Part shown: positions 2,128 through 64,000 of the stretch, in pieces
Position numbering within the stretch: position 1 is the first letter of the stretch
Layout: each line of letters starts with the position of its first letter
DNA from: a virus
Length of the DNA stretch: 64,000 nucleotides
Reading direction: 5' to 3' (one strand)
IMG/VR virus record: IMGVR_UViG_3300033149_003588
Coordinates: 1 to 64,000 of that record
The notes under the pieces: model-generated
The model's database searches: none
What the model was told of the DNA's origin: nothing
The model's input: only the letters and a program-made list of their open reading frames with translations
Program-made: the position numbers and the translations under genes

Positions 2128-2139
2128 ATGGCCTCCTTA

Positions 2140-41300: not shown

Positions 41301-43454
41301 ATCTAGAAACCCTCGCAAATGCGCAGACATGTCACTAACGCGCATCCCCATCTTAGTAAATATATCATTAATACTTTCAGCCTCAGTTTTTATAGATTTT
41401 ACATAATCCCTGTATTCTTTCGTTCCCTTCGTCGGCATGGGCTTAGATAATAATTCTTGTATTTTTTTAGTATGCTCCATTGCCTCATCTAAACCCTCTG
41501 GCATCATATCAAGTCTCTCATACATAGAACCAAATAATCTACTTAATACTTCCGGAGCACCCTCAGCACCTAAAACCTTGCCAAATATACCACCGGCAGC
41601 TGTAATCTTATCTTGTAAAGCAGTAATCTCTTTCATGTAGTCCTGGGGGGTACCACCCATAAATGCTGCTATCTGTTCTTTATTAACTGGCATAAACCTG
41701 CCGGTAAGTGTCATACCCAATTGAGATCTAAGTTTTTTACCCCTTGCAAAATTAATGATACCCTGCCATCCTCCTACAAAGCCACTCTTAATACCCTTAG
41801 CAACACCTCCAGCAATTTCTCTAGTGAGCCCCCATGTCACACGATTAACAAAATCACTATATAAATCGGGACCCAAAAGTCTAGACATCTTTGTACCTTC
41901 ACGGAATAACCTAGACTCACCTAATGGTCTGGGTTTTCTTTTAAATATGGTATCCCAGAATCTGGGCATCTCACTTACTTCGGCCATCATACCACGTATA
42001 GCAGGTTCGGCAGATCTAATGTACTCAGCACCCATATGCTCCATACCAATACCACCAGCTATCTTGGCAATTCTGCTTAATGTTGTCTTATCAATTTTCC
42101 CCTTAAATCCCTTCTTAGCAACATCATACATGGACCTTCTATAATTCATTAGTGCATCATAGGTCTCAGCTTCTGCAGATATCTCAAGTTGTTGTTCCAA
42201 GAACGCCCCAATAGCAGCACCCCTGCCACCAACAGTTGGTCCGCCCCGACCAGCACCAGTAAGAAAACCACGTCCTAGCCCCGCAAGTGTCGGTGACATT
42301 CTACCAAGACCAGACAATGCAATCTTAAGCTTATCAGTAGCAGCAGTCCATTTTTCTACACCAAATACAGCAGTCCCCATATAATTAGTTAAACGAGCCA
42401 TAAATGCCAAAAATCCCACAAGCATAACACCCTTCAAAAGCATTGTAAATCCCTTTAACGGCGAAATTAATAATCCAAGAGCAATTACAATACTAAACAA
42501 TATACTCTGTAGTTTAACAAGCCATTTTATCACTAATTGCATCATAGGAGACGAAACGATTTCGTATAAAAGTTCCCATAATTTAGATAAATTATTATAT
42601 AAATCCTGGAATCCTGGAGCAGCTGCTGCACCTATGGACTGGATTATTTTTTCACGAATACGACTAAATCTTTCCCATCCAAGTAGATTCTCTTCCAACA
42701 ACATAGATTGTATGCCTTGATATGATAATCCTTGTTTAACCATCTCATTAAATACCGCTTGTTCTTTGGCAGTATTATCTAATTCCCTAGCGGTCTTCCC
42801 AAGCCTTCGTGCCGCAGAATTAAGTACCTGATCTAATCTAAAGTTTACACCGATATTATCTAATATATTAGGATTTAACTGACGGAATCCACGTGACACT
42901 AATTGTATAGCATCATTAAAATCATATCCCATAACTCTGCTACCATCTTTGACTTGTTTAATAAATGTTTCTATCTGTTCAGTAGACAATGATGTACCAA
43001 GCAATCTCATAGTACCCTGCATTAAATCCATCTTCTTGGTAGTAGCGTCAACATTGCGCTCGATCATCGATAGAATGCTAGACACATTTCTACCAGTAGT
43101 CATCGATATATGTTCTATCGATTTTTGCAATACCATCATTTTGCGTGCTCTGCTTTCAGCATAAGCAAAAAAACCGCCCAGAACTCCCTGTAATGTTAGT
43201 ATTTTTCTTTGTAAACGACGTATAGGCCTGATAGTAAATCTTGTAAGTAGTCGATCGAATGATCGGATATCTTGCTTTAAATCATTAGATACACTTCCAA
43301 ATATTTGTCCTAGTTTATGAGCATGTCGCCTGGCATTTTTCTCGTTGCGTAGCATAGCACCACGAGAGGCTATTTCAAGTTCCTCAGCGTAATGTTGCAT
43401 AGCTTCTATACCCTCAGGATATATCGATCCTTCAAATATTTCTCTGCCTGGCAT
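38355..43454 (-). CDS. Tail tape measure protein
   Basis: 1699 aa, helical, ILDNIG motif and a central hydrophobic stretch; follows the chaperone pair. Confidence 0.9.
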   Translation of the reverse strand: MPGREIFEGSIYPEGIEAMQHYAEELEIASRGAMLRNEKNARRHAHKLGQIFGSVSNDLKQDIRSFDRLLTRFTIRPIRRLQRKILTLQGVLGGFFAYAESRARKMMVLQKSIEHISMTTGRNVSSILSMIERNVDATTKKMDLMQGTMRLLGTSLSTEQIETFIKQVKDGSRVMGYDFNDAIQLVSRGFRQLNPNILDNIGVNFRLDQVLNSAARRLGKTARELDNTAKEQAVFNEMVKQGLSYQGIQSMLLEENLLGWERFSRIREKIIQSIGAAAAPGFQDLYNNLSKLWELLYEIVSSPMMQLVIKWLVKLQSILFSIVIALGLLISPLKGFTMLLKGVMLVGFLAFMARLTNYMGTAVFGVEKWTAATDKLKIALSGLGRMSPTLAGLGRGFLTGAGRGGPTVGGRGAAIGAFLEQQLEISAEAETYDALMNYRRSMYDVAKKGFKGKIDKTTLSRIAKIAGGIGMEHMGAEYIRSAEPAIRGMMAEVSEMPRFWDTIFKRKPRPLGESRLFREGTKMSRLLGPDLYSDFVNRVTWGLTREIAGGVAKGIKSGFVGGWQGIINFARGKKLRSQLGMTLTGRFMPVNKEQIAAFMGGTPQDYMKEITALQDKITAAGGIFGKVLGAEGAPEVLSRLFGSMYERLDMMPEGLDEAMEHTKKIQELLSKPMPTKGTKEYRDYVKSIKTEAESINDIFTKMGMRVSDMSAHLRGFLDNIIKNITSASTNYQLMGKYITRLGEGIDTKGFIKIEDTISNIRAMVTDTAFKAIGELSPEFKVGYKALAEAIDDYDKAIEAQRTADDPVKAQEDIRRAAEGVRNKMLELRVATQKSIKPMQEMRAAAKEFLQPISNIVSAWQEVDQMMIHVAKGKGMEYFKRTLGILATGAWGVVKAFNAILWSLGKMVIFMAALRIAFGIWSYYSKKESDTIKKMKEDLAAVKRGFKNAEEEAAVLKKTIGDTKLIPLERRRILMGMTPEEFSKVVAASKVLGKSMDDMYDILIRQERGGIFQGGFNIAEKFKLGFSRFTMQFQGFQREYEQMMEVEPRIVTGTAVNQINILQRALVSLHDVPGISSLRQQETIARTLIALFTYLDLPKQRAQMVKFWRSITSEIKNIQTALSGAKISDWMAALGVDEVIGAIITLKTYKDEIKGIPETIEKLHKDLSRIRERQLEIDAEVEIDEKDAQATYDEFHRAVKDWGRVEFGIDFSERDAKMMADIWESMNKNLRGIDPKLFNYNEAMIAYTSHEVGQIGMGITRRQKANLAMGRELKRIYEEHGQALQNVGTAHGKIGISVAEIVQGYVKYGKQVATIADRQNDVLKHEAERGRLLDEESEKLAEIRAAEESFAEITKKRTEAAKTLANAYNAVLTVVIKTHDTMAEIIGLVRKAKGYITGKLFPGFEDPFYEYETLIMQLEEKRQAFEAIMGTPIKEFATMGDRAREVMEKNIFGDPMLGEHIIERGQSLLSALSEVYERGFELGMPMDDIKRDMLAVADILEITGTTKLGKQAQYLVNLRAVYEDVAKPVIDKMHDATFLLTGAFAQGASVADSLDLAAKHFADVIPGLEKTIGVFQDIFTSEAFKKATEGIKFGEAAEKLSKVIDEATQTIRKQLPPAIGIGREEALNKLNDMPELIHSISEQSESNIELANAVKNLVAQYTNDINITGSAEIILKDERGNQLGATELHITTTNLPISGD

Positions 43455-43881: not shown

Positions 43882-44375
43882 TAATCCTCTTTGGGGATGT
43901 CGAGATTCGTAATCTTCGGACTTGATATTTGGGGTGTGCCTCGTATTTGTTTGAAAATATCGAAGCCTACACCCAAATCTAAAAAATTTAGTTCATATAC
44001 CACCTTAGCCGCATATATAGCCTCCGAAATAGTTATAGTGCCAACTATCTGATCTGAAGATAAATCTATACCATCATGCTGAGCAAGAATATCACCTATG
44101 TTCTCTTTAATTATATCTATAAAGGTCAATTCTGGGCATTGTGGTATGGTATCTGCTTGTCCATCTTTGGCATCTCTATACCGTGTATAGGCATCCCAAT
44201 AGTCGAATATACTATCAACCATGGCACCAATATTCTTAATCAAATCTAACACTATACCTATTGGAAGTGGTTTAATATAATAAGACTTACCACCAATTAA
44301 TATTTCTGATGCCTCTTTTCTAATATCTTCTAGTGTTATCGTCCCCAATAACTCCTTAATTTTTTCCTTGTCCAT
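43881..44375 (-). CDS. Tail assembly chaperone (G-like)
   Basis: Lies between the tail tube and tape measure; contains T-TTT-TTA near its 3' end. Confidence 0.8.
   Translation of the reverse strand: MDKEKIKELLGTITLEDIRKEASEILIGGKSYYIKPLPIGIVLDLIKNIGAMVDSIFDYWDAYTRYRDAKDGQADTIPQCPELTFIDIIKENIGDILAQHDGIDLSSDQIVGTITISEAIYAAKVVYELNFLDLGVGFDIFKQIRGTPQISSPKITNLDIPKED
43980..43986 (-). promoter_or_regulatory. -1 programmed ribosomal frameshift heptamer T TTT TTA
   Basis: X XXY YYZ in the correct frame; the -1 frame has no stop until it joins the ORF at 43881. Confidence 0.8.
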
Positions 44376-44416
44376 TGTATCTCCTTATCTCATATATTTA
44401 TATACATTTACTAATC

Positions 44417-44524
44417 TTATTTATTAAACAAGACTAGAATAGTTAATACAACCAGCACTATAATCATTAGAGCAAGAAATTGGCTGTCGCCAAGGAATGC
44501 CTTGATTTCCTCATATATTTTCAT
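44417..44524 (-). CDS. Small single-pass membrane protein (35 aa, not in the ORF track)
   Basis: MKIYEEIKAFLGDSQFLALMIIVLVVLTILVLFNK; no clear SD. Confidence 0.45.
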   Translation of the reverse strand: MKIYEEIKAFLGDSQFLALMIIVLVVLTILVLFNK

Positions 44525-44541
44525 ATGTCATCATGTACTAC

Positions 44542-44573
44542 AATGATAATAGGGGACAAACCCTATCATCACT
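44542..44573 (-). terminator. Hairpin after the tail tube gene (terminator or mRNA stabiliser)
   Basis: GTGATGATAGGG-loop-CCCTATTATCAT; weak U-tract. Confidence 0.55.
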
Positions 44574-44583
44574 AATCTAATAA

Positions 44584-45369
44584 TTAACTAGGTGCTTCAA
44601 CCTTTTCAATTGTAATATCATAGGTTACCCAATCTGTTTTGCTCTCTCTTTTTTCAAGGGAAGTGATAATACCAGTAAGACTCTGGGTAACAGGAGTATC
44701 TGCTGGCAACATACTGGTAGCAGTAAGTTTTACTTCTCCGCCAATAGCTATACCAGTGTCAGGTGTAACAGCTTCAATATAAGCAGTTTCTCCACTAACG
44801 CCACTGGGAATCTCACCTTCGAATGTAGCAGTCATGGTCTTGGTTAACCTAACACCTCTAATGCCAACAACCTGAATAAGCGGATCATTATAAACGCCAG
44901 TACCACTAACACGTTCTACTTCATCAACATCCAGTCTCTCAGTATAAGTGGCAGTTGTCATGGGGCCAAGCAGACCATACGCAGGACATGCATCCGAAGT
45001 AAATGCCGTTAATTCGTTAGCAGTGCCACATTCACCGCTAGCATAAAGGGTATATGCAGCTCTAAATTGCACATCGTCTTCTCGATTCCACGTGATTTCT
45101 CGTTCATTTAAGAACCAACTCACAGTGCCAAGAAATTCTGTGGGATCAAATCCTCCAGAAGTAAATGTATCTGTATCCGGGACGCCATCAAGAGCATCAT
45201 ATGTACAATCTGCAGTGATATTGATTTTTTGAACAGCTTCTACATCTTGTACAAGAATATGCTGTGTTGGATCACCAAATTCGTGCCTAAGCACATCAAC
45301 ATTGGCAGACACAGTAAGATCTATAACTCCTCCATCTGTACCAAAGGCTAGGCCATCTATCACGGGCAT
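44584..45369 (-). CDS. Major tail (tube) protein
   Basis: Acidic, T/G-rich, 261 aa with a strong SD; lies between neck genes and chaperones and is followed by a hairpin. Confidence 0.7.
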   Translation of the reverse strand: MPVIDGLAFGTDGGVIDLTVSANVDVLRHEFGDPTQHILVQDVEAVQKINITADCTYDALDGVPDTDTFTSGGFDPTEFLGTVSWFLNEREITWNREDDVQFRAAYTLYASGECGTANELTAFTSDACPAYGLLGPMTTATYTERLDVDEVERVSGTGVYNDPLIQVVGIRGVRLTKTMTATFEGEIPSGVSGETAYIEAVTPDTGIAIGGEVKLTATSMLPADTPVTQSLTGIITSLEKRESKTDWVTYDITIEKVEAPS

Positions 45370-45393
45370 AATAACCTCCTTCTATTATCTATA

Positions 45394-45888
45394 CTACTCT
45401 ATTGAAACAGTTTGACAAAATACCAATCTAACAAGTATGTGACCACACCAACAATTATATCTATCACCTAATCTACCTCTATTTAAAACAGAAAAACCAA
45501 GAGTACCAACAGCATCACCATCTGGTACCGTAGAACCCTCCTCACGCCTAAATCCAGGATATCTATCGTATTCCACAATAACATTGTTAGGATCATCATT
45601 TACAAAAATCTCTGTAACTTTATCTAGAGCTTCATAAAGCGGCCAAATATATCGATATTCTTCTTGCTTCATAAAGACCAAAATATCAAAAGAACTATTA
45701 ATACCCCTATCCTCCCCACTAATAACACCCATATTAATAGACATCCACTTGTTAATCTTGGTCTTGTCAAACTTGGCATCACCCATATCCAATTCCCAAT
45801 CGGGCATATGACTAGATATGATATACCCTAGATTTTCCAATAAATTTCTATAGCTTAACTTATTATTAAGAGCCATGATAATATCCAC
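45394..45888 (-). CDS. Putative tail terminator / completion protein
   Basis: Size and position. Confidence 0.55.
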   Translation of the reverse strand: MDIIMALNNKLSYRNLLENLGYIISSHMPDWELDMGDAKFDKTKINKWMSINMGVISGEDRGINSSFDILVFMKQEEYRYIWPLYEALDKVTEIFVNDDPNNVIVEYDRYPGFRREEGSTVPDGDAVGTLGFSVLNRGRLGDRYNCWCGHILVRLVFCQTVSIE

Positions 45889-45931
45889 ATATAGAACACT
45901 TATTATAATAATACATTGTGAATGTCCTCAT

Positions 45932-46348
45932 CTAATCAAAATCAATGCTACGACAATATGCAACATAATTACCCATAGGACTAGGAACAATCCTATATAT
46001 ACGTAATGTCACAATCGCCTCATCGGACTTTCCGATTAAAATACCTTCTACATCAAGATGCTCACCAACATATATTGCTTCACGCGTGGTAATTAACCAG
46101 TCCCCACTCTGTATTAGTCCTCCGCTCTTATCTATGTCCTCTAAACTAGTAGCGGCTATATCACAATCCATGGTTACACTGGCATCTTCAAATGTGGGTT
46201 CTATTCCAGCAGCAGGATCACCAGCATCAATTATGGTTTTACGCTTTACAATGACTTCTGGATTACCATGAATACTTCGTGATAATTCCCAGACAATGCG
46301 CTCGGCTCTAATTAAATTATTTATTTGTGCCTGTGTAAACCCACTCAA
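45932..46348 (-). CDS. Putative head-closure (stopper) protein
   Basis: GGLIQSGDWLIT motif and position. Confidence 0.55.
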   Translation of the reverse strand: MSGFTQAQINNLIRAERIVWELSRSIHGNPEVIVKRKTIIDAGDPAAGIEPTFEDASVTMDCDIAATSLEDIDKSGGLIQSGDWLITTREAIYVGEHLDVEGILIGKSDEAIVTLRIYRIVPSPMGNYVAYCRSIDFD

Positions 46349-46404
46349 TATATATCCCCATAAATTCCAATATAGTCTTCCATCTTAAACTAGTCTTATA
46401 ATAT

Positions 46405-48180
46405 CTAATCATCAGGCAAAATAATTATATCGTCATCATAATCACCTATCTGCCAATCATCATACCAACGATTCGTTACATCAATACTATGAATATTATC
46501 AAGTAGCTCTCCATACTCCTCAATGTGCCATTCAATAGTGTCAAAGAAATCAACATCACACACTGGCGGGGCATTAGTCCATAGTCCTTTATCTTCCAAT
46601 TTCCCTTGAATATTTCGTTTAAATTTCTTATCATAATAATTGTCAAATATTTGTCTAATACGTCTTAATATTTTAGATGACATTAAACTAGTAATTTGAG
46701 TATTGTCCTCAGTTCCAAATATAGGCACCAGTATATAATTAGATAATACAGCTATTAATGCATATGCTGCGGCTATTTTAATAATCCACAAGACATCGAG
46801 CGAGTCATTATACGTAAGATATATGTCCTCCCAATCAGTAACAATTGCAGCAGCAAAATCTAAAGCATCCAGTAGTGCCCGATCGGTAGTAAAATCAGCA
46901 CATTCACCAAGTTCACGTTTCAACATCATAATCAGCCATGAAGTAGTAACCCTAGTACTTAAGCATGCAGACAATAACAAATCACTAAATGACACAGCAG
47001 AAATGTATAATGTTATATCAGGAGATTCCAACCCTACATTGCCATCAACTCCAAGCGCACTCAATATATCTGGCGCATCATAATATATACGTATCATATC
47101 ACAACCATTATGGGTATCATAATATAATTTACTACCATTATAAACAAAAAGATAGGGAGTATATGTATCTACATCGTATCTTATCTCAAAATCTCTATAC
47201 TGTTCATAATCAGAACCATGATCAGTTTCTACTGTTATGGTTCTTTCTAATTCATCATACGCAGCTATATCCCAATGATAGGGAGGATATTGCCTCCAAT
47301 AAGGAATCGGATAGTTCTGACACGATTGTATATAGCATCCACCTCTATATTGTCTTTTTACCCTACGTAGAGGCATTCCGTCTTCCCTATATCCACCAGG
47401 CCCTAATAAATTCCCCCACGATATGCCAAATCTATATTCATCTGGTGACACCCAACCATAATCGTCATCCCACATTTCCCATTGATCAATAGTATATACT
47501 CTATTACCTGGCACTAATTCTGGATGTAGCTCAATACATCTACGCTCATCAATATCACCGTCAGTGTCAGGGGCAAATATATCACCGCCATCACCCCAAT
47601 CAACACCACCAGCACCACCTCCACCACCCATACCACCTCCTCCAATAGGACACCAATCACCATTACCACCCCCCTCCCAATCTTCTGGACTATTAGGATC
47701 TATATCAATCCAACCACTAAATGTATTATAAAAATGAAATAATATATTAGTATCACTATAGACAGTCTCTGGTTGAATACTTTCAAACTCTACATATATG
47801 TCATGGTGTGATACTGTAAGTGCTATTACTTTATGATAAATATTAACATCATAACAATTAACCGCAGTCGCAGGATAATAGATATTAGCATCATTATAGC
47901 TTAATATGCTTTGGCCAAACTGTACATCTACATCATAATAACCAGGAACACTTACCGGTAAGTAAACATCTATATCATCGTAGCCCTCTATTATATCACA
48001 ATGTGCTTCTATAACAATATCGTGATATACCTCAGTCTGAAAAAATATATCAATACTTGTTTCACTATCATAGCAACACAGGGCAGCAGTTATAGCGGTA
48101 TCACTGTAATCCGTAACCACGTGGATTACATCAACACCGCTAGAATTATGTCCTATTATTATGTGCATGTTTATATACAA
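46405..48180 (-). CDS. Structural protein with N-terminal YxDxD repeats, a Gly-rich linker and a C-terminal adaptor-like domain
   Basis: C-terminus aligns by eye with 48859-49671. Confidence 0.55.
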   Translation of the reverse strand: MYINMHIIIGHNSSGVDVIHVVTDYSDTAITAALCCYDSETSIDIFFQTEVYHDIVIEAHCDIIEGYDDIDVYLPVSVPGYYDVDVQFGQSILSYNDANIYYPATAVNCYDVNIYHKVIALTVSHHDIYVEFESIQPETVYSDTNILFHFYNTFSGWIDIDPNSPEDWEGGGNGDWCPIGGGGMGGGGGAGGVDWGDGGDIFAPDTDGDIDERRCIELHPELVPGNRVYTIDQWEMWDDDYGWVSPDEYRFGISWGNLLGPGGYREDGMPLRRVKRQYRGGCYIQSCQNYPIPYWRQYPPYHWDIAAYDELERTITVETDHGSDYEQYRDFEIRYDVDTYTPYLFVYNGSKLYYDTHNGCDMIRIYYDAPDILSALGVDGNVGLESPDITLYISAVSFSDLLLSACLSTRVTTSWLIMMLKRELGECADFTTDRALLDALDFAAAIVTDWEDIYLTYNDSLDVLWIIKIAAAYALIAVLSNYILVPIFGTEDNTQITSLMSSKILRRIRQIFDNYYDKKFKRNIQGKLEDKGLWTNAPPVCDVDFFDTIEWHIEEYGELLDNIHSIDVTNRWYDDWQIGDYDDDIIILPDD

Positions 48181-48232
48181 ATGGCGCTCATTACAAGCGC
48201 CAATCAGTGTTAGTAAGTACTTTTATAAACTA

Positions 48233-48421
48233 CTATTTGCCCAAGAATTTGGCAGAAATTTGTTTTAATCTTTTTAAATACTTCCTCCATGATTGAGGCA
48301 CGCCACCCATTAATGGATATCTAGAAGGCAACACCTTGGTATTTATACCCACCGAGTGAGGCATTTCAACAGTACTCATTAGCTCTTGAATATGTTCTTT
48401 ATTCACAATAGGTATAATCAT
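48233..48421 (-). CDS. IPI..IQE-leader small basic protein
   Basis: N-terminus MIIPIVNKEHIQE. Confidence 0.75.
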   Translation of the reverse strand: MIIPIVNKEHIQELMSTVEMPHSVGINTKVLPSRYPLMGGVPQSWRKYLKRLKQISAKFLGK

Positions 48422-48747
48422 TTTATATTTCTAATCTGTTTGAGTATATTTTTACCAAGCTTTTTATATGTCTTGCCAAGATTAATACGATGAGCTATCT
48501 TCTGGGTTAATATAGGGATCCTGTTACCCAAATATTTCTGGTGAAACATGGGTTCACTAATACTTTTCCCACTATAAAATCTGCCCAGCATAGTACCTAT
48601 ATATTTCTCTCTATTAGTCCATCTTTTAAGTGGAGATTTTATCACTGCAAGCGCACCAGCCACAGGATCACCACCACCCATATATGTAGCATATCTCCTC
48701 AACGAGCCTGGCAGCCTTTCCTGTATACTCATAATTGGAATAATCAT
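48418..48747 (-). CDS. IPI..IQE-leader small basic protein
   Basis: N-terminus MIIPIMSIQE. Confidence 0.8.
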   Translation of the reverse strand: MIIPIMSIQERLPGSLRRYATYMGGGDPVAGALAVIKSPLKRWTNREKYIGTMLGRFYSGKSISEPMFHQKYLGNRIPILTQKIAHRINLGKTYKKLGKNILKQIRNIK

Positions 48748-48770
48748 AATATTGTTATCATTAGATATAA

Positions 48771-48847
48771 TGGAGGTGTGGGCATCGAAGCCCAGTCCAT
48801 GAATTACCTATATAAGGTCTTAATTCATGTCGAAACCTTTCACCCCC
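48771..48847 (-). ncRNA. Minimal tmRNA-like RNA (tRNA-like domain only)
   Basis: GGGGGTG/CACCTCC-A acceptor stem with G3-U70; stemless D-loop AAAGGTTTCGAC; 8-bp helix ATGAATTA/TAATTCAT; GGAC; T-arm TGGGC-TTCGAT-GCCCA; intergenic. Confidence 0.75.
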
Positions 48848-48858
48848 ATACTTGTATA

Positions 48859-49671
48859 CTATATTGCACTGTACCACCATTTACTATAAGTAGTAACAAG
48901 ATCATCCTCTGTCTCGTGACTACCAATTTTATATTGCGTACTATCTATCCCCGTATCTCTTTCCACATCATATTGTACACTTGTAAAGTCCGCCACCGCT
49001 GATTCTTCTATCTTTCGCCAATATACTACACCATCTATAATCTCACGATACATACGCTGCTGCTCTCTTTCCCAATGAGAATCGAATACCCTTATGGCAT
49101 CCATAATTTTTGTACTTAAATTTCCTGCGCCAATATTTGATCCAGGTTGACTTATACTAGGAATTAATAACCACTGATTTAATATTATCTGATAACAATG
49201 TCTCACGGCTCTATTGGTCAACCAACTTATATCCCACTTATTTAATTCAGATAAATCTGATGGAATTTCTTTAACATCAGCTTCTGAGTGCATAAGGGCA
49301 TCCCCGATTGCAGCACTTGATAATGAATCTGCCAAAGGGCCCAACTGTCTTATAACTCTACCTAATAAACTATTACCCGTGTCCTCTTCTACTATAAATA
49401 TTCTTTCAAATGTGGTATCACCAGCGGTCCATATATCTTTGTATATACCAGCAGTGTTGATTGTTATAGTAATAGTATATTGACCAATTATGACCTCAGT
49501 AATGTCAGAAACATTAAGTGATATATCTGTATATTCTACCCAACCAGTTTCACCATCTAAATGATATATAGCAACATCAGTAAATCCAGGGTTATACAGT
49601 TCACCATCTTGATTATATGTAACCAAAGTTAGAGTTATAGGCTCGTCTATCGTATTATTATAACGACTCAC
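48859..49671 (-). CDS. Putative head-tail adaptor with an N-terminal Ig-like domain
   Basis: GQYT...AGIYKDIW beta domain plus a helical C-terminal domain; position. Confidence 0.55.
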   Translation of the reverse strand: MSRYNNTIDEPITLTLVTYNQDGELYNPGFTDVAIYHLDGETGWVEYTDISLNVSDITEVIIGQYTITITINTAGIYKDIWTAGDTTFERIFIVEEDTGNSLLGRVIRQLGPLADSLSSAAIGDALMHSEADVKEIPSDLSELNKWDISWLTNRAVRHCYQIILNQWLLIPSISQPGSNIGAGNLSTKIMDAIRVFDSHWEREQQRMYREIIDGVVYWRKIEESAVADFTSVQYDVERDTGIDSTQYKIGSHETEDDLVTTYSKWWYSAI

Positions 49672-49704
49672 AGTCCATTCTCCCTAAATCTACATGATAA
49701 CCCA

Positions 49705-49971
49705 TTATAAACGTGGTCTTTTTGCCTTTAAGTATATCTGTCCTATATTTTTATATATTTTCCCAGCATCTGTGCCCACATTTCGAGCTGCCATATAACC
49801 ATAGAATTTCTTCTTCAATAATTTGGCTACATGTGGATTCTTGATATTGCCAAATGACGGAAGTATGAGGGCGTATTTACCACCATACGACGGGCTAGAT
49901 ATTAATTTCCTAAACATACCCATAACAGCAGACGGTGGAGTTTCTTGAATATGTATAATAGGTATCAACAC
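49705..49971 (-). CDS. IPI..IQE-leader small basic protein
   Basis: N-terminus MLIPIIHIQE. Confidence 0.8.
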   Translation of the reverse strand: MLIPIIHIQETPPSAVMGMFRKLISSPSYGGKYALILPSFGNIKNPHVAKLLKKKFYGYMAARNVGTDAGKIYKNIGQIYLKAKRPRL

Positions 49972-50201
49972 TACGACTTCCTCTTCTTACCTAGACCCTT
50001 TCCTTCGCCCTCACCAAAACCGGGACCCTCTTCACACGGCTCAGTGTTCTTATTTCTTCTCAGACCACCAGGCATACCTTTACCCTTGCCTGCTCCGGCC
50101 TTCTGTCCATAAATTACTGATTTTCCTCTACCACGTCTGAATAATCTGGCAAATAGATCACCAATTTTCGTTTCCTGAATTATAATCGGTATTACCATCA
50201 T
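49971..50201 (-). CDS. IPI..IQE-leader small basic Gly-rich protein
   Basis: N-terminus MMVIPIIIQE. Confidence 0.8.
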   Translation of the reverse strand: MMVIPIIIQETKIGDLFARLFRRGRGKSVIYGQKAGAGKGKGMPGGLRRNKNTEPCEEGPGFGEGEGKGLGKKRKS

Positions 50202-50827
50202 TCCTCCATCTTTCTATATGATTTTTTAAACTTGCGTTTTCTTATCCATTTTTTATAGGCTGCTTTAGCTTTATTTATATACCCGTGCGGTACTACATCA
50301 TCCTTATATGTGCCAGAATTATAACCATCAAATATATCATCTATACTTTTAGGATTATACTTAAGCACCCTGTTATTCAAAAACTTAATCACATAAATAA
50401 TGGCAATCTCATCATTATCTAGTTCCTCTGGTGTGCCACGAAATCCTAATTCCCAGGCAACAACAAATAATATTTGCCATGATGAATAGCTTTTTGCAGC
50501 GGCTCTTCCGAACCTCTTCACTAAATCTCGAACTTGTTTAGATTTCTTATAATAATACCCACCTTTATAATATGATTTTTCAAAAAGTGGCTTTGTATTT
50601 TTACCATAATTGCTTTCGACGCATGCTATAGCCTTCAATAATATCTCTGGATCAACATTGATTCTTTTCAAATTTCTTAGATGTGGGGCATATTCCTCAA
50701 TTAGCAACCCCAGTCTATTCTGCCTGGTTGTTGCTGCTACCCACCGTCGCATTTTTATAGTTTCAAGCATTTTATTTAAATTCCAGTGCAATATAATATA
50801 TCTCCATGTTTCGACAATAACATTCAA
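50198..50827 (-). CDS. Lysozyme-like / lytic transglycosylase (probable endolysin); true start probably downstream
   Basis: AIACVES catalytic Glu, SYSSWQI and YNSG motifs. Confidence 0.75.
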   Translation of the reverse strand: MNVIVETWRYIILHWNLNKMLETIKMRRWVAATTRQNRLGLLIEEYAPHLRNLKRINVDPEILLKAIACVESNYGKNTKPLFEKSYYKGGYYYKKSKQVRDLVKRFGRAAAKSYSSWQILFVVAWELGFRGTPEELDNDEIAIIYVIKFLNNRVLKYNPKSIDDIFDGYNSGTYKDDVVPHGYINKAKAAYKKWIRKRKFKKSYRKMEE

Positions 50828-50883
50828 ATTATTTTATATCGTAGAATTCTTAAATATGCCCCACATGTAATCATCTGATTATA

Positions 50884-51318
50884 CTATTTATTTTTCTTCT
50901 TGAATGTTTTAGCGCCCTTCTTTAACGTCCCAAACAAATCACTAACTGAGCCCCATGCCTTTAATACATCTTTAACTGCCTCAACTGCTTCTTGATACTC
51001 TTTAATAATGGCTACCCGTTCTTCTTTGGTTATTTTCTTATCTTCAAGTGCTCCTATGGCTGATACCCCAACCTCTTGAGCTGCAATAATAGCTTCACCA
51101 ACCTCCTTCATCAGTACACAAACACCAAGAATAATAGTTTTAACCTTGACAAATATTACTGCAACAGCGCTAATACCTAGAACAATGGCAATAATCCAAT
51201 TTATCAGTGACCATTGATCTATTCCTGGTATTAGATCTTCTATACCATCGGCCATGATGGTAGTCGTCGATACTGTCAATAATAACAATATCATATAAAT
51301 TAGTGTACTCCATTTCAT
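50884..51318 (-). CDS. Membrane protein, holin/spanin candidate
   Basis: Signal/TM segment plus a second TM and a basic tail; adjacent to the lysin. Confidence 0.55.
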   Translation of the reverse strand: MKWSTLIYMILLLLTVSTTTIMADGIEDLIPGIDQWSLINWIIAIVLGISAVAVIFVKVKTIILGVCVLMKEVGEAIIAAQEVGVSAIGALEDKKITKEERVAIIKEYQEAVEAVKDVLKAWGSVSDLFGTLKKGAKTFKKKNK

Positions 51319-51332
51319 ATTATCCTTCCTTT

Positions 51333-51962
51333 CTATGGTGTCGATCTCAACATCTCATCAGAATACGACACATTAAATATTGGCACACCATTTTGGATAG
51401 AATTATAAGAAATATCCTTTATTCCAGTAATCCCGCCCAATGCTGTCAAAATAGTAGGTAATTTAGTTATCAATATAAGATCATTTTTATAGTCAATAGT
51501 CTCCGAAATTAATATCTTGGGTACTTCCATTTCAACAATGCCGCCTACATCTACAAATGATAATACGCCAATATTCTTGTCAAATCTAGACAATGGCATG
51601 GGATCATGAACATTATCTAAAAATGTAGCATCACTACCAATCTCATTTAATGTAAAACTCCTTATATAACTAATATCAATACTATCATTGCTCTCAACAA
51701 CCAGACTATAATCATATGTCAAATCCTGTATAAGGGTAGTCGCGCTATCTTCTACTATATTAATGGCTTTATCAACAGATAATGCAACCAATTCATCTCT
51801 AATTGATTCAATATCAAATATTGTCAGATATCGCATATACCACACAGTTACAACTATATTACACGCAACTTGTCTTACAATATTGCCATCTATCGTATGT
51901 GTCTCGCTATAGTGGGGCTTTATATACTCAAATTTGTAATATGTTTTACAAGGATTGGCCAT
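51333..51962 (-). CDS. Hypothetical protein
   Basis: 209-aa ORF in the operon. Confidence 0.65.
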   Translation of the reverse strand: MANPCKTYYKFEYIKPHYSETHTIDGNIVRQVACNIVVTVWYMRYLTIFDIESIRDELVALSVDKAINIVEDSATTLIQDLTYDYSLVVESNDSIDISYIRSFTLNEIGSDATFLDNVHDPMPLSRFDKNIGVLSFVDVGGIVEMEVPKILISETIDYKNDLILITKLPTILTALGGITGIKDISYNSIQNGVPIFNVSYSDEMLRSTP

Positions 51963-51985
51963 TATAATTATGACAACAAAATAAT

Positions 51986-53176
51986 TTACATACTCACCCT
52001 ATAATCACCATCAGGATATATCCAGCATGCTATTAACCCCTTTGCAGGTGGCGCATAACCAAGTTCGCTACCATAACTGTCGAAATAATTTAAAAAAGAA
52101 CTACAAATGACAATGTATTGTTTTTTAATATCCAACGTAAAATCTATGGGATTTCTCACTATTCTATTCTTCTTTTTGTCTGTCGCATCATGCACATGAC
52201 CACTTAAAAAGAAACAACAATGCTCTGTAAACATTAACGGAGATAATGCCGCATTAAGTTTGCCCCCTTCAGATCTAGCACTAGAACGACCATGCCAAGC
52301 ATAAAATGTAAATGTGTGCTCCCCATATATTACATCTATAAATGCTGGTTCTCTGTAATAAGGAATTTCTAGTTTGCTAGCTATTACCTCACCCATATCT
52401 ATGCCAACACTATTTGCCGAACGTCTTTCGTGATTGCCTCTTACATATGCCAATATTTTATGTTGTATTGGTGCTAATTTAGATATCATCTGGGCAGCTT
52501 GCGCCTGTGGTGACATGGATTGTCTATATACTGAATCTGCAACACTATACTTAGAACTGTTTTCTATCATGTCCCCCAACAATATTACATACACACCATC
52601 CGTATCGGCAATCCATTTTATACTCGTATCAAATAGCTCTTCATCAAAACTCGGTTCAGCATAGTGGACATCACCAAGTGGTATGATTTTTACTTTATCA
52701 AGTTCAAGATCTGAAGATGGTAATTGTACTCTTAAGTATGGGCAATTATCATTTTCATTAATAAATAATTTAAACTTCCTTGGTATAAAATCTAAATGCT
52801 TATTAAATTCCTTGAGTAGTGCAACTACTTTCCCGGTTGATCTAGTATTAAATTTAAATACTTCATATCCAAGTACACTCCCCAATATCTTATCTACTTC
52901 TTCTTCATTAATCCCATATTTATTATATAGCGCACGATATGATAATGCCCTTAATTTTGCCCAGCCAATAAGCGTAGCATGATCTAATTCCTTGACACTT
53001 TTTCTGCTAGCTAGCATGCCTCTTATTGGAGTAAGCCCCATCGCCATAGCCTTATTATATACAGCGCTAGCTGTTCTTAGGGGTAACATATCTGCAATAT
53101 TATTCAAAGACAAAATACCCCAATTATCTCTTATTACATTTTCTTCATCTACTGTCCAACGTATATTACCAGCCAT
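51986..53176 (-). CDS. Calcineurin-like metallophosphoesterase with an N-terminal Myb/HTH-like domain
   Basis: GDVH, GDMIE, GNHE, WHG and GHVH motifs; N-terminal WTVDEE...LRTASAV. Confidence 0.88.
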   Translation of the reverse strand: MAGNIRWTVDEENVIRDNWGILSLNNIADMLPLRTASAVYNKAMAMGLTPIRGMLASRKSVKELDHATLIGWAKLRALSYRALYNKYGINEEEVDKILGSVLGYEVFKFNTRSTGKVVALLKEFNKHLDFIPRKFKLFINENDNCPYLRVQLPSSDLELDKVKIIPLGDVHYAEPSFDEELFDTSIKWIADTDGVYVILLGDMIENSSKYSVADSVYRQSMSPQAQAAQMISKLAPIQHKILAYVRGNHERRSANSVGIDMGEVIASKLEIPYYREPAFIDVIYGEHTFTFYAWHGRSSARSEGGKLNAALSPLMFTEHCCFFLSGHVHDATDKKKNRIVRNPIDFTLDIKKQYIVICSSFLNYFDSYGSELGYAPPAKGLIACWIYPDGDYRVSM

Positions 53177-53487
53177 TATCCACCTCTTTTAAAAAAATTG
53201 AGCAAATTGGCCAATCTACTTTTACCAATTTTGGTAAAATTAGCAGAATGTTTACCACGCGCGGACTTGACAATAGATTTAAGTCTTTTCCTCATGAATT
53301 CCCTAGAATCGAAGATAGTAACATTAGGATGCCTGTACTCATTTTTTAGAAAGCGACCTTGTTGTAGTAAACCGCCCATCCTGCCCGCGATATTTGACCG
53401 CTTTAAAAAATCAAGCCCACTGTCTCTTTCCTGCGTTATCGGAACAGCACAATGGGCACCAGAAATATTTACAATGGGCACTAACAT
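53176..53487 (-). CDS. IPI..IQE-leader small basic protein (extended leader)
   Basis: N-terminus MLVPIVNISGAHCAVPITQE. Confidence 0.75.
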   Translation of the reverse strand: MLVPIVNISGAHCAVPITQERDSGLDFLKRSNIAGRMGGLLQQGRFLKNEYRHPNVTIFDSREFMRKRLKSIVKSARGKHSANFTKIGKSRLANLLNFFKRGG

Positions 53488-53504
53488 ATATTATTTACCC
53501 ACCA

Positions 53505-53843
53505 TTACCCAGACAATATGCCAATCATACTAACTACAATACTTATAGAAATATATAAAACCCCAAGCACTATATGAGTTCTCTTTAATACAAATCCTGT
53601 TTGCTCTCTCATGGCTTTCATAATATTGAGTTCTAATTTGTTGTTTTCTATTTGATCTCTTATTATTCTAAACTCGTCATCAATATTCTTCTGTTGACTA
53701 TTCATAAATTCTTTAACTTCATCAATACTCTTTACCACTGCTCCTATTTCTTTCCACATCTTGGTAATAATAATAGCAAGACGGCCCTCAATAAGCTTGC
53801 CATCATCATCATAGAGATTACTAAGATTATTATTATCTGCCAT
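53505..53843 (-). CDS. Coiled-coil protein with a C-terminal TM helix (holin-like)
   Basis: Heptad region followed by a hydrophobic C-terminus. Confidence 0.55.
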   Translation of the reverse strand: MADNNNLSNLYDDDGKLIEGRLAIIITKMWKEIGAVVKSIDEVKEFMNSQQKNIDDEFRIIRDQIENNKLELNIMKAMREQTGFVLKRTHIVLGVLYISISIVVSMIGILSG

Positions 53844-53852
53844 TATCGCTCA

Positions 53853-54140
53853 CTAATATTTAAATTTTTTATATGTGTCACTCGATTCCATAATCATCAT
53901 TGAAATAGAATGTTTTAGTTGTCTTATCGCATCAAGAAAAGCTTGCGGTTCAACCATGGCTTCAAGATTATAAAATCTTACAATATCTTCACGATTAACA
54001 TTTTCAAAAATAAATTCTGCCTTATTATTATTTAAAAGAGCCTTCTTAACACCTACATATTTGGCCCCGTTCAATAAATATAAATAGGCCGCCAAACAAA
54101 TATCGCTAGTCGTACCACTATGCTTATCATAATGAGGCAT
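53853..54140 (-). CDS. DUF5659-like phage protein
   Basis: TSDICLAAYL...KAEFIFE...FLDAIRQLK; the ATG at 54140 avoids overlap with the upstream gene. Confidence 0.65.
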   Translation of the reverse strand: MPHYDKHSGTTSDICLAAYLYLLNGAKYVGVKKALLNNNKAEFIFENVNREDIVRFYNLEAMVEPQAFLDAIRQLKHSISMMIMESSDTYKKFKY

Positions 54141-54150
54141 TATTGTGCCC

Positions 54151-54435
54151 CTATTCTTTCTTGAATGGCCCCAATCCCAGTCTCTTCTGAATGGCTTCTG
54201 CCTTTTTATATACATCAGGACGATTATGTTGACGAGCTCTCGTTTTAGCAGCGCTCAACATTCTACTAGATATATTCCCAGCCTTATCACGATAAGGATA
54301 TTTTCTATCAGATGGTGATAAAAACGAACTAGCAGGCATTTCTCGTCTCACAGCTGGACGATGAAGCCATTTCTTCCCTGATAACCTGGCTCTCGTAATT
54401 TTTTGCTCTTGTATATTCACAATAGGTATTAACAT
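54151..54435 (-). CDS. IPI..IQE-leader small basic protein
   Basis: N-terminus MLIPIVNIQE; core RxxMPxSxFLxPxxRKYP. Confidence 0.8.
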   Translation of the reverse strand: MLIPIVNIQEQKITRARLSGKKWLHRPAVRREMPASSFLSPSDRKYPYRDKAGNISSRMLSAAKTRARQHNRPDVYKKAEAIQKRLGLGPFKKE

Positions 54436-54488
54436 TAGAAAATCACCTCACTTATACAACCATAAAATTAATTTACTTTTCTTTTTCG

Positions 54489-54803
54489 TTATCTATATGG
54501 ATACACATATGGATATGGACGCATTTGTCTAGACAATTGAGGCTGACTACTCTGTTTCTTTATAGATCTTTTAGTAGCAATCTTCCCTCCTATCTTATAA
54601 CCAGTATACCCAGCCAGCGGCACAGTACTAACAGCAGCACCACCCATGACTTTCGCTAAAACAGGATGTTTTCTCACAAATGTGGTAATCTTAGGCCCTC
54701 CCATACGTGCAATAAGCTCACCCATGCCACGCATAGCATGTAATGCTCTACTCCTAAAAGAACCTATAGGAACTTCTTGAATATGTACAATGGGTATAAT
54801 CAC
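54489..54803 (-). CDS. IPI..IQE-leader small basic protein
   Basis: N-terminus MIIPIVHIQE. Confidence 0.8.
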   Translation of the reverse strand: MIIPIVHIQEVPIGSFRSRALHAMRGMGELIARMGGPKITTFVRKHPVLAKVMGGAAVSTVPLAGYTGYKIGGKIATKRSIKKQSSQPQLSRQMRPYPYVYPYR

Positions 54804-54812
54804 TATATAATT

Positions 54813-55163
54813 TTATATTATTTTAAATACTTTATTTTTTCTTTGTTTTTTTCTTAATTTTTCTATATTTTTTATAGCTCCCACACTGTTTGTGGGAATA
54901 GCAGCAATATCATGTGTGTCCACTCCCCTAATCTTTACATCTATAATATGTCTCTTGGGAATGCGACCCAATAAATAACCTGCCGGACCAGCCCCAAGAA
55001 CACCAAGTCCTAATACCTTTTTATATTTACGAGTAGTTTTCCCAGAAGCACCCAATGATTTTAATATAGCATGCCCCATTTTGCCAGGAATACTGCCAAT
55101 CCTATTCATAGCTTTTATCTTATTAAATATACTTTCTCTTATGTTGATAACCGGTATAAACAT
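54813..55163 (-). CDS. IPI..IQE-leader small basic protein
   Basis: N-terminus MFIPVINIRE. Confidence 0.8.
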   Translation of the reverse strand: MFIPVINIRESIFNKIKAMNRIGSIPGKMGHAILKSLGASGKTTRKYKKVLGLGVLGAGPAGYLLGRIPKRHIIDVKIRGVDTHDIAAIPTNSVGAIKNIEKLRKKQRKNKVFKII

Positions 55164-55196
55164 ATTAATATAGTTTTCTGTATTTACTACATAAAT

Positions 55197-55424
55197 TTAT
55201 ATTATCTTAAATACTTTCCGTAGTAAATTAAGTTTAGTAGCATTAACACCAAATGGTTTGGTACTTCCCATTATAGCTCGTGATAATCTTTTACGTATAT
55301 TTAATCTCTTTGCTGCCTGAGCTAACTGCGCCATTACAAGCGGATCATGAACCCTCGGGATAGATTTAGCATAGGTGCCCCCAACCTCTTGTATAATCTT
55401 CGCATTTGCTATAGGTATCAACAC
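55197..55424 (-). CDS. IPI..IQE-leader small basic protein
   Basis: N-terminus MLIPIANAKIIQE. Confidence 0.8.
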   Translation of the reverse strand: MLIPIANAKIIQEVGGTYAKSIPRVHDPLVMAQLAQAAKRLNIRKRLSRAIMGSTKPFGVNATKLNLLRKVFKII

Positions 55425-55768
55425 TATTTCTTTTTCTTTCCTAATTTTTCTCTTATCTTGGATTCAATTTTATATTTCTCAAGCCCACGCGCGTATTTTG
55501 TTTTAAGGTATGGCTGCAAAAGAGCAGAAAGCCCACCCAACGCGCCAGCACCAAAAGTAGCACCCATAAGACCCCTGGTAATTGCCTTGCTACCTTTGGG
55601 ACCGAAAAAACCCATTAGACCTCCCACACCACCCAATACGGCACCCCTCTTAAGCCCCGTATATGCTGCAGTAGGTCTTGTACGTATATATGCTAAACGA
55701 CGTTTATATTTTTGAATTTGTTTATCAGGATCATCCGCTTCCTGTATATTTACAATTGGTATAATCAT
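55424..55768 (-). CDS. IPI..IQE-leader protein with glycine-zipper helices
   Basis: N-terminus MIIPIVNIQE; GAVLGGVGGLMG and GATFGAGALGG segments. Confidence 0.8.
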   Translation of the reverse strand: MIIPIVNIQEADDPDKQIQKYKRRLAYIRTRPTAAYTGLKRGAVLGGVGGLMGFFGPKGSKAITRGLMGATFGAGALGGLSALLQPYLKTKYARGLEKYKIESKIREKLGKKKK

Positions 55769-56295
55769 TATACGCTCTTCTTTTTCTTTTTATTTTTTCT
55801 AGACAACGCACCTAAACCATAACCAACACCATAACCACTGGCCGCATACCCCGCATAAGGTATAATAAAACCTAGCATATCATGGGGGTGTTTAGATCGC
55901 CACATCCAATTTTTAATTATTCGGGTACCCCTGCCACCATGAACCCTCGTTACATATTTTTTAATAGCGCTAGCACCACTCTCTTGTACTTTGCCCACCT
56001 TCATCGGTATTTTATGCTTACGACGTGTAGGAGACACCTTACGACGAGTCTTACGCGCTTTACCACCATGATACAAACCACTGAGACCCGCCATAGCAGC
56101 AGTATAATGCATTAGCGAACGTGAAAATCGGTCTTGATATGGATAACCCAATATCCACAAACTACGACGTGGATTAATAGATTTTGTATGTCCTATACTA
56201 AAATGCCCAAATAGATCAGGTTTCATAGCAATAGCACGTTTCCCAAATTTATAAAATCTACCAGCCTCGCTTATATGCAGAATAGGTATAACCAT
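55768..56295 (-). CDS. IPI..IQE-leader basic protein, possible two-unit polyprotein
   Basis: N-terminus MVIPILHISE; internal VQE-S. Confidence 0.8.
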   Translation of the reverse strand: MVIPILHISEAGRFYKFGKRAIAMKPDLFGHFSIGHTKSINPRRSLWILGYPYQDRFSRSLMHYTAAMAGLSGLYHGGKARKTRRKVSPTRRKHKIPMKVGKVQESGASAIKKYVTRVHGGRGTRIIKNWMWRSKHPHDMLGFIIPYAGYAASGYGVGYGLGALSRKNKKKKKSV

Positions 56296-56312
56296 TGTGT
56301 GTCTGCTCCTTA

Positions 56313-56348
56313 TTTAAAAGGGGTGCCAGATCTTACGCCTGGCACCCC
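56313..56348 (-). terminator. Rho-independent terminator after the capsid genes
   Basis: GGGGTGCCAG-loop-CTGGCACCCC followed by TTTTAAAT. Confidence 0.85.
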
Positions 56349-56418
56349 ATGTATTTCCAATTAATATAACCAACCCAGCGCAAGAAGACACAGACTACTA
56401 GTCTATATGAAAAATCAT

Positions 56419-56985
56419 CTACTTCTCGCCCTTCTTCTTCCTAATCTTCTTAAGTAGTGCAGCAGTACCAGCACCAGCACCAGCAAGACCAGTGCCCATA
56501 ATACCATAACCTACTTTTCTAGGATTCCTAAGCATAGCGTATAGGGGCTTTCTGGTTAAATTACCAACACTAAGTCCCGCCCTCTGAACACCACCATAGG
56601 CACCACGAGCACCGGCAGTAGCACCTTTGGCTATGCCCGCACCGGCTTTCTTTAGACCACCGTAAACACCAGTAGCACCTTTAGCTACACCACGAGCACC
56701 GGCGGCAACACCTTTAGCTACACCACGAGCACCAACGGTAGCACCTTTAGCTACACCACGAGCACCAACGGTAGCACCTTTAGCTACACCACGAGCACCA
56801 GCGGTAGCACCTTTAGCTATAGTTGCGCCGATTTTTCTTAAAAACGTAAGTATATTGGCACCGGCAGCTTCTTGAAGTGCTTCAACATCCAATTGACAGC
56901 CTGATAGTGATCCCTCCTGGATAACACCATCTTCATCAGCAGTGAACCACGATTCACCTATCCTAATAAGATAAACTCTAGACAT
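56419..56985 (-). CDS. Basic Gly/Ala-rich 11-aa repeat protein (putative internal head protein)
   Basis: GVAKGATVGAR repeats (33 nt); acidic N-terminus with IQE-G and LQE-A; directly after the major capsid gene. Confidence 0.75.
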   Translation of the reverse strand: MSRVYLIRIGESWFTADEDGVIQEGSLSGCQLDVEALQEAAGANILTFLRKIGATIAKGATAGARGVAKGATVGARGVAKGATVGARGVAKGVAAGARGVAKGATGVYGGLKKAGAGIAKGATAGARGAYGGVQRAGLSVGNLTRKPLYAMLRNPRKVGYGIMGTGLAGAGAGTAALLKKIRKKKGEK

Positions 56986-56994
56986 AATCTCTCC

Positions 56995-63800: not shown

Positions 63801-64000
63801 CTCCTCATCGTGGCCATAGTCTTACGATTATCAACAGTTACACCGATATCAGAATACATGGTATTAACAAGAGCCGAATTAGAAACTATAGTATCATGTA
63901 TACTCTTATCAATCTCACTAGACAATATACTGTTCCCAACTATCGAATCTATAACTTCCAAACCCCAATCATGCCCAATCCTCCCAAGTAATTTTTTAAT
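60827..64000 (-). CDS. MuF / SPP1 gp7-like head morphogenesis protein with a long C-terminal extension (5' end outside the window)
   Basis: DNMTCPVC...G...PRHRRCRCT motif; the frame is open to base 64000. Confidence 0.8.
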   Translation of the reverse strand: MKKLLGRIGHDWGLEVIDSIVGNSILSSEIDKSIHDTIVSNSALVNTMYSDIGVTVDNRKTMATMRRIYSKIGFKDNKLTLSHYDRRLLLDMYKDLDDLEMRVKNNPEAYLGTNFNRLEDNIYGILRGQYSGKDKMVGRYAVYQDFARVYVNTAVKQLMNDNADLLQGIMITVVMDNMTCPVCLADAGKIYPQEKWHIMPVLPRHRRCRCTYTPIFLPTAVMANRSTVEIDRKRLSRIRDKIGSAGEVEYQQSLFELAVTSPDDLGGRFNVNSNYGVLYMEGVFTNGLSPRVVHDKIYEWKEAMPVKRGDELWSEFKDKYNRSLISRIVYGPDSIDAAINFSKGNTDIVRTIQKIAVDNTVSLVDGGVTSDIRVLLGSISHDHIYDRLFTLFKEHRDEGLSAEELAERHKELTLREIEDALKMFYESGDISMAIDLMARNIVNGRIIAADSVITELVDSLGLDIKSVLNAEQDKICEAFNIALFDKYLYTDPSGVEFYGVEAVGKVVQELKDTGLYTNKEIYDMIYGGFNPSGVPLKGAVDKWPSFSELGGKELSYLRWKITSTMSAHIADRVSNNIEKISAAIAKLIEKIGHISVSDHNLEFWNMSLVDILKNTGSPGVLEFLRQWRKLDTVRQDFIKSKLTPRAREVIGRLTMTAWRGPYTSVISPVTGKKTVLRELILGTAWAPGAQPGITEHKWIGYCYQNGRIFYMPAEAGIDDATALADINMGTAPIKFRVETNVNNAFTRIDVDPDLDMPSRLLLDASLRIHGAQPWIGTVKNVGDRADFLGGVINSFSFNSMEASSEYSIVAQEFLKSVLQARHDIETQLGMPIDISQFKSIMRLAIPIGRPNTENTYRIGSYVFQSDAFVDARRIGLTPIATESGEKFTIWQLFYYNPWDPLDTIFMSGYDFGALRRMPHANDIHTAAHDIVDITLNDRATTNTLIDMVRDNPELIDKLNINVDAHDRVYRGKPKKLSSEQISRAWLDDAGKGYGIMYKRVGGWKRKISKEELKKALLINRGNRIIDTLQNPEYPLSKDVLNALKEELEMIKHIITKM

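Follow-up and report, generated by a model that had tools for sequence, protein, structure and literature searches.

The closest described counterpart of the RNA gene reported here belongs to phage DS6A, whose tmRNA is listed as "TLD only" (PMC4131195), the TLD being the tRNA-like domain. The primary source cited for this form is Mao et al. 2009 (as cited in PMC4131195 and PMC11915505). A DS6A-like RNA is described as an inhibitor of tmRNA in E. coli (PMC4131195, PMC11915505); according to the first of these papers, inhibition by such a similar molecule is strong whether or not it can be charged, and it perhaps works through titrating SmpB (PMC4131195). Tag-less tmRNAs are also reported from jakobid and oomycete mitochondria, and from two plastids, with plastid genes of about 65 nt in Mallomonadaceae, and some bacteria have tags of two amino acids, Ala-Ala (PMC11915505).

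It has been reported that the TLD together with SmpB carries out template-free polyalanine synthesis in vitro (PMC3929946, PMC2481249), and for this reason ribosome entry and peptidyl transfer by a TLD RNA can be regarded as established chemistry. RqcH and RqcP likewise place template-free alanine on stalled chains (PMC8373112). However, RqcH acts on split 50S with ordinary tRNA-Ala, and no such protein is implicated for the element described below; the likeness would be one of functional analogy, not of membership.

The window, that is, the whole stretch of 64,000 nucleotides analyzed here, is part of a complete virus record of 144,798 bp with direct terminal repeats, coded on the minus strand. 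A 77-nt TLD-only element can be read in it on the minus strand at 48771..48847, with G1 at 48847 and the discriminator A73 at 48771. The 5' strand of a 7-bp acceptor stem (48841..48847) contains G3 of the G3.U70 alanine determinant, and it is followed by a stemless D-loop (48829..48840). Next comes helix P2a (7-8 bp) with a purine bulge and a short CC/GG hairpin (48799..48828), standing in place of the pseudoknot/tag region, so that only 30 nt lie between the D-loop and the GGAC connector (48795..48798). The T-arm (48779..48794) has a 5-bp stem and a 6-nt loop, and the 3' strand of the acceptor stem with U70, plus A73, occupies 48771..48778. TTA directly follows A73, and CCA is not encoded. 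The original prediction had given the same coordinates, strand, sequence parts, G3-U70 pair, A discriminator, 6-nt T-loop and absence of CCA, and all of these match the sequence. It had not remarked that the T-stem ends in a C53-G61 pair, versus the usual G53-C61.

Several of these positions correspond to known contacts. G3.U70 is the determinant for AlaRS, and RNase P is the 5' nuclease of tmRNA (PMC3985003). SmpB contacts E. coli tmRNA at U17, C18, G19, A334 and A15 (PMC8363625); predicted equivalents of the first three are present in the D-loop and that of A334, part of the SmpB pocket, in the GGAC connector, while the A15 position is U, as it also is in 53/105 full-length viral tmRNAs.

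The Rfam tmRNA model RF00023 matches the element with 55.2 bits (gathering threshold 47; E 5.9e-19) in an alignment that replaces 302 model positions by 10 nt. This is the best match of its clan and the sole Rfam match at E<=1 within the 64-kb window. Its minimum-free-energy structure reproduces the TLD expected from the sequence (-30.5 kcal/mol, z -4.07), and 1 of 200 shuffles folded as well. Both results place the element well outside chance expectation. Together with covariation across the viral family (see below), the model match and the fold agree with the initial description of a tmRNA tRNA-like domain without its message. That description had come with a proposal to run Infernal and ARAGORN: the Infernal-type comparison gives the 55.2-bit match, and ARAGORN with default settings misses the element and calls no tRNA in the whole genome. 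At a low threshold, ARAGORN calls the element as a tRNA among 50 noise calls, and the permuted-tmRNA calls returned at that setting were rejected as noise. One structural point had to be revised. The supposed open 14-nt loop folds, as predicted, into a 3-nt purine bulge and a 4-bp hairpin with a 5-nt loop, and judging from the aligned relatives this bulge and short hairpin is the conserved apical element of a family of mini-tmRNAs (minis), in which the bulge is A-rich.

Other classes of RNA gene fit poorly. Like one-piece tmRNA (SsrA, RF00023), the element has a whole tRNA-like domain; unlike SsrA, it is without pseudoknots, resume codon, tag frame and stop codon, and it cannot tag. A full one-piece tmRNA was rejected, as the tag frame in its ring of pseudoknots is absent from the 30 nt available. 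A two-piece (permuted) tmRNA was rejected because the halves stand in standard order and the genome has no RF04321-type match, and an ordinary tRNA because a D-stem and an anticodon arm with a 7-nt loop are absent and ARAGORN by default calls none. The CDS-less organellar tmRNAs are also without a tag reading frame and are thought to be SmpB-dependent (PMC11915505). However, those are the organelle's own tmRNA, whereas the window copy is encoded by a virus and would be present alongside a full host tmRNA.

The DS6A gene (JN698994, about 28478-28560; "TLD only" in the tmRNA Website) resembles the window copy much more closely. Both are about 80 nt long with G3.U70, A73, a stemless D-loop, P2a, an A-rich bulge plus CC/GG hairpin, a T-arm and no encoded CCA, and both are intergenic, the DS6A mini being unannotated in its record. 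DS6A deviates in the GGAC connector and the D-loop, whereas the window copy is canonical in both; the T-loop has 7 nt in DS6A and 6 nt, with C53-G61, in the window copy. Unlike DS6A, the window copy has an AU-rich apical loop and belongs to a 145-kb phage in which a tyrosine integrase was not detected. Because the DS6A record has the same bulge-and-hairpin build, the window element is, on structural comparison, a member of the DS6A-type TLD-only tmRNAs.

The form extends well beyond these two phages. A strict pattern scan of viral sequences found 19 stretches, and a looser pattern returned 120 loci, from which about 230 viral stretches are estimated. The exact patterns require four leading G and therefore undercount, since DS6A and the minis of phages LuckySocke and BRock do not fit them. 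The looser pattern ends in the T-loop, leaving the 3' acceptor strand free with the 5' G fixed at positions 2, 3 and 4. D-loop and GGAC bases were fixed by the patterns, so their conservation in the family is not independent evidence. The pattern matches plus the window copy give 97 distinct sequences, or 96 after a misregistered match (L040) was dropped. The length is 75-82 nt in 94/97. A G.U pair occurs at 3.70 in 95/96, versus 1/96 at 2.71 and 8/96 at 4.69; A73 is present in 95/96 and C74 in 87/96, and CCA is encoded in 27/96.

Helix P2a is paired in 605/672 cells, compared with 300 +/- 11 in 1000 shuffles. In a MAFFT alignment of 93 minis (L012, L040, L083 and L122 left out; acceptor stem unscored owing to misaligned 5' ends), 91.2% of cells pair, against 58.2% when shuffled and 40-50% with slid partners. 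On these counts, helix P2a is a covarying helix across the viral family; pairing of the apical hairpin is weaker, at 68% in the same alignment. With a middle of 46-76 nt the pattern finds 11 stretches and with 288-318 nt about 1100, so the short forms, at about 230 stretches, cluster at one size and do not form a smear of deletions. For every mini in viral contigs there are about five full-length tmRNA matches, counting those of the commonest size. Within this family the window copy is an outlier: C53-G61 is found in 1/96 viral minis, and the base after A73 is U where 87/96 have C.

The rarer, longer tag-less TLD genes with the 46-76 nt middle (L223-L233) parse as complete in 10/11 cases, and in four of them (L227, L228, L229 and L231) a longer stem bears the same A-rich bulge and CC cap as in the minis. 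Many mini caps contain a GCAUG-type 5-mer (GCATG in 18/96, GCACG in 12/96), whose distance to the D-loop is 8-10 nt shorter than in full-length tmRNA genes. An origin by a single deletion between two GCAUG-type copies of helix 2 was considered, but would leave this spacing unexplained.

Cultured phages also have the gene. Unannotated minis of the same build, with G3.U70, lie in the tRNA regions of the Streptomyces phages LuckySocke and BRock (L378:1501-1581 and L402:492-573), and GiJojo, pSt2308 and Alone3 were also matched over at least 80% of the query. Blast matches in Niklas and QDWS359 are 3' fragments and were rejected as minis. For the window element itself, blastn against cultured phages gave one 19-nt chance match.

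In a search of one genome per prokaryotic species, 47 short-pattern matches were found, of which 15 are fully paired; most of the others are chance matches. Of the bacterial genomes with a pattern match, 19 were checked for a full-length tmRNA, and 15/19 have one elsewhere. One small MAG labelled Saccharibacteria (G004) has a 70-nt TLD-only gene (L156:3324-3396, on G004:C12) that is surrounded by housekeeping genes, with smpB about 570 nt away, and this gene is the sole tmRNA match over the cut-off in that MAG. Among the relatives searched, 23/25 have a long tmRNA match (278-420 nt), and 184 nt downstream of the short gene the assembly has a gap. A cellular TLD-only lineage around this MAG is unsupported, given the long matches in its relatives.

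The T-arm variant is not confined to the window copy. A metagenome scan that forced a 6-nt T-loop gave 20 matches, 15 of them complete TLDs (12 distinct), and in all 12 distinct ones the part that the scan left free has G3.U70 and A73. The same variant, with the C53-G61 closing pair, occurs in 3/105 distinct full-length viral tmRNAs. The TLD nearest to the window copy among 223 distinct ones compared is that of a full-length viral tmRNA (L351; 45/47 positions), which shares the variant. By this comparison the T-arm variant is stable, compensated and recurring, and decay as an explanation of the 6-nt loop was rejected because it recurs, with compensation, in metagenomic minis and full-length viral tmRNAs. 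This suggests that the window copy derives from a lineage of full-length viral tmRNAs or has exchanged sequence with one. The recurrence also shows that viral tmRNAs can do without the canonical end of the T-arm.

The element is intergenic and lies between head and tail genes. Profile searches placed the major capsid protein at 56995-58089 and the tape measure at 38355-43454, and also found DnaE, RecA and NrdD. Upstream, a 270-aa ORF of no known family (48859..49671, minus) ends with its stop codon 11 nt before G1 and is likely on the same transcript. Downstream, a basic 109-aa ORF (48418..48747, minus), one of a set of small ORFs with a shared N-terminal leader, starts 23 nt past A73 and has no PHROG or Pfam match. 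A 153-aa plus-strand ORF spanning the element (48541-49002) was dismissed as a shadow, since coding is on the minus strand throughout. A promoter/terminator scan of 44000-58000 gave counts as in shuffles (59 vs 64 and 7 vs 6.5), with no promoter-like site directly upstream of the element. DnaE, NrdD and Shine-Dalgarno use point to a bacterial, likely anaerobic, host. RecA is <40% identical to the 15 cultured-phage matches listed. In the viral contigs searched, neither a relative of the 270-aa protein nor, via the major capsid protein, a close relative of the phage was found. One DNA sequencing run contains two identical 151-nt contigs nearby, with the element outside both.

The rest of the genome was searched for partners. 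SmpB, tyrosine integrase (PF00589), the RF-1 domain and Pth gave no match, and no serine recombinase was seen among the general PHROG/Pfam matches. Outside the element there is no second tmRNA-family match at E<=1 (1-64000 and 60001-144798), and the genome has no second copy of either half of the element and no tag-like peptide in its non-coding gaps. The separate coding piece that the original prediction had suggested looking for was thus not detected in the 144,798 bp, in a search that could miss a very divergent one.

Among the 50 longest records chosen from carriers of a mini, 20 of which are at least 90% complete, SmpB occurs in 0/50 (0/20 of the near-complete ones), Pth in 0/50, an RF-1 domain in 2/50, a tyrosine integrase in 7/50 and a full-length tmRNA in 1/50. 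An SmpB partner must therefore be the host's, as there is none in this genome or in the carrier records. A tRNA gene lies within 1 kb in 17/67 loci with long flanks, and an upstream ORF lies within 30 nt in 19/66 family copies. The scan of flanking ORFs (85/126 ORFs) found varied neighbors and no fixed partner gene: one group of minis lies between head protease and capsid genes, another after an exonuclease, and several copies, the window copy likewise, lie in head-gene operons. Since carriers are without SmpB and Pth and the neighbors vary, the mini is a stand-alone gene that would rely on host proteins.

A few carriers deserve separate mention. Two large ones (L399 and L400) encode short RF-1-domain proteins (123 and 136 aa, the size of ArfB) away from the mini. 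One viral genome (G022) has two different minis (L048 and L071) 67 kb apart, and another (G023) has a mini (L025) together with a 392-nt full-length tmRNA.

The explanation that we favor, at about even confidence, is a mini-tmRNA that the host processes and alanylates and that, by means of host SmpB, gets into non-stop ribosomes, where it adds alanine but no tag and so dampens host tagging. Host enzymes would likely cut the RNA out of a late transcript; we infer this because of the head/tail setting, the 11-nt and 23-nt spacing and the absence of its own promoter-like site. CCA and alanine would then likely be added. With host SmpB and EF-Tu, the charged RNA would compete with host tmRNA for ribosomes that have stalled on non-stop messages, enter them, accept the nascent chain and add alanine, more of it in repeated rounds, while supplying neither tag nor stop codon. 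Back-up routes of the host would have to provide release, and on balance SsrA tagging would fall during infection. Release factors do not accompany the mini, so a productive outcome would depend on the host. The full-length tmRNA in 1/50 carriers is also awkward for pure inhibition. The analysis establishes the structure, its conservation across the viral family and the lack of a detected phage SmpB or coding piece, while expression, processing, charging, SmpB binding, ribosome entry and benefit to the phage are inferred. Inhibition of host trans-translation would agree with the published DS6A-like result. It had also been suggested that the RNA protects late proteins under mRNA- or tRNA-cleaving defenses. 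Nothing found here speaks for this: there is no fixed partner gene, and non-stop products would presumably be truncated whether tagged or not.

The foremost rival, which we consider unlikely, is that the RNA is purely a sponge: it would sequester host SmpB and destabilize host tmRNA, ribosome action being unneeded and charging incidental. The published inhibition by a similar molecule, chargeable or not and perhaps by titrating SmpB (PMC4131195), fits well and is the main argument against a charged RNA acting on ribosomes. SmpB is in none of the 50 carriers, and copies in head-gene operons, the window copy included, would likely be abundant. But U70 and A73 are each kept in 95/96 distinct minis and in 12/12 distinct complete copies with the six-nt loop, which is more than a sponge needs, and in vitro the ribosome accepts a charged TLD with SmpB as substrate (PMC3929946, PMC2481249). 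This strict alanine identity would be the main argument for ribosome action over a pure sponge, with the qualification that G3.U70 could have been kept for the stability of a charged 3' end and not for ribosome entry.

A quite improbable reading is that of a streamlined factor for template-free alanine tailing and rescue, which would keep ribosomes cycling, with alanine tails as a degron or release route. The same has been proposed for the tag-less mitochondrial and plastid tmRNAs; such forms exist, as do the Ala-Ala tags (PMC11915505), and the in vitro polyalanine synthesis (PMC3929946, PMC2481249) shows the chemistry it calls for. The 70-nt gene near smpB in the Saccharibacteria-labelled MAG, its only tmRNA match over the cut-off, would also fit, but that state is not common to the relatives searched (23/25 with a long match) and a gap lies 184 nt downstream. 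Moreover, the mini supplies no stop codon, no release factor co-occurs, and the sole published in vivo result is inhibition (PMC4131195, PMC11915505).

It is very improbable that the RNA serves as a decoy for defense enzymes or sensors that recognize the elbows of tmRNA or tRNA, so that translation of host and phage would be spared. Defense systems with SmpB-like domains and RNases have been predicted, and only predicted, to target tmRNA (PMC11090510), and the T-loop and D-loop variants that recur in viral copies could reflect escape; yet there is no link to any defense system, and strict alanine identity is explained no better than by the favored reading. Barely credible is a cis-acting processing signal, by which RNase P and 3' trimming would punctuate or stabilize a late message and leave the small RNA as a by-product. 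In its favor, a stop codon lies 11 nt ahead of the element, a start codon follows after 23 nt and no promoter-like site is nearby, and 19/66 copies are <=30 nt from an upstream ORF. But any tRNA-like fold would suffice, the tmRNA D-loop, P2a cap and alanine identity being unneeded, and 17/67 copies are <=1 kb from tRNA genes with gene neighbors that vary.

A non-functional relic, be it what is left of an att site or a tmRNA or tRNA in decay, has a next to negligible chance and is largely refuted at the family level: phages often integrate at tmRNA genes (PMC11915505) and the window copy deviates in its T-arm and 3' trailer, but both halves are present and pair perfectly where the true attP of phage Niklas has the 3' end only, beside an integrase, no tyrosine integrase (PF00589) is in the genome and 7/50 carriers have one, lengths cluster at 75-82 nt (about 230 stretches vs 11 with a 46-76 nt middle), and the T-arm variant is compensated and recurrent. 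An attP remnant was rejected on the same grounds, and the att-site and degenerate-tRNA origins named in the original prediction as possible better explanations find no footing in these results.

A broader and rather improbable proposition sees in the tag-less mini-tmRNAs a widespread family of phage genes, so far unannotated, by which host SmpB would be made into a template-free machine for alanine tailing on 70S ribosomes. If so, they would be an RNA-only counterpart of RqcH, rewiring which stalled proteins are degraded during infection, and the apical bulge-hairpin and the 6-nt T-loop variant would be selected features. If the RNA acts on ribosomes, it would serve phages against the quality control of bacteria and would offer a natural way to learn what a message-less tmRNA does in vivo, with a bearing on the mitochondrial and plastid forms. 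The form had already been published as a curiosity of one phage, DS6A; added here are its breadth (about 230 viral stretches), narrow size, strict alanine identity and the lack of a phage SmpB. In the literature searched, mostly without subscription papers, no paper describing this breadth was found, and the database supplements of PMC11915505 may list more. The unannotated copies in the cultured phages LuckySocke and BRock make the family testable.

Some other features of the genome were recorded. The two longest gaps between minus-strand ORFs of at least 55 aa are at window 11165-11779 and G000:C1 124061-124453, neither with an Rfam match over the cut-off. A 5279-aa ORF with a metallo-beta-lactamase-fold domain lies on the minus strand at G000:C1 60827-76666 (window 60827-64000). 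DUF4116-repeat genes form a tandem array at both genome ends (window 477-3219 and G000:C1 136436-142460), partly inside the direct terminal repeat of 2.17 kb. Eleven small, mostly basic minus-strand ORFs follow the capsid genes closely on the downstream side, in 48233-55768, with starts at 48421, 48747, 49971, 50201, 53487, 54435, 54803, 55163, 55424, 55768 and 56295. Those scanned gave no informative PHROG or Pfam match. The eleven have in common a hydrophobic N-terminal leader of about 10 residues that ends in or near Glu, which we take to resemble the capsid-targeting leaders of internal head proteins that are removed by the prohead protease.
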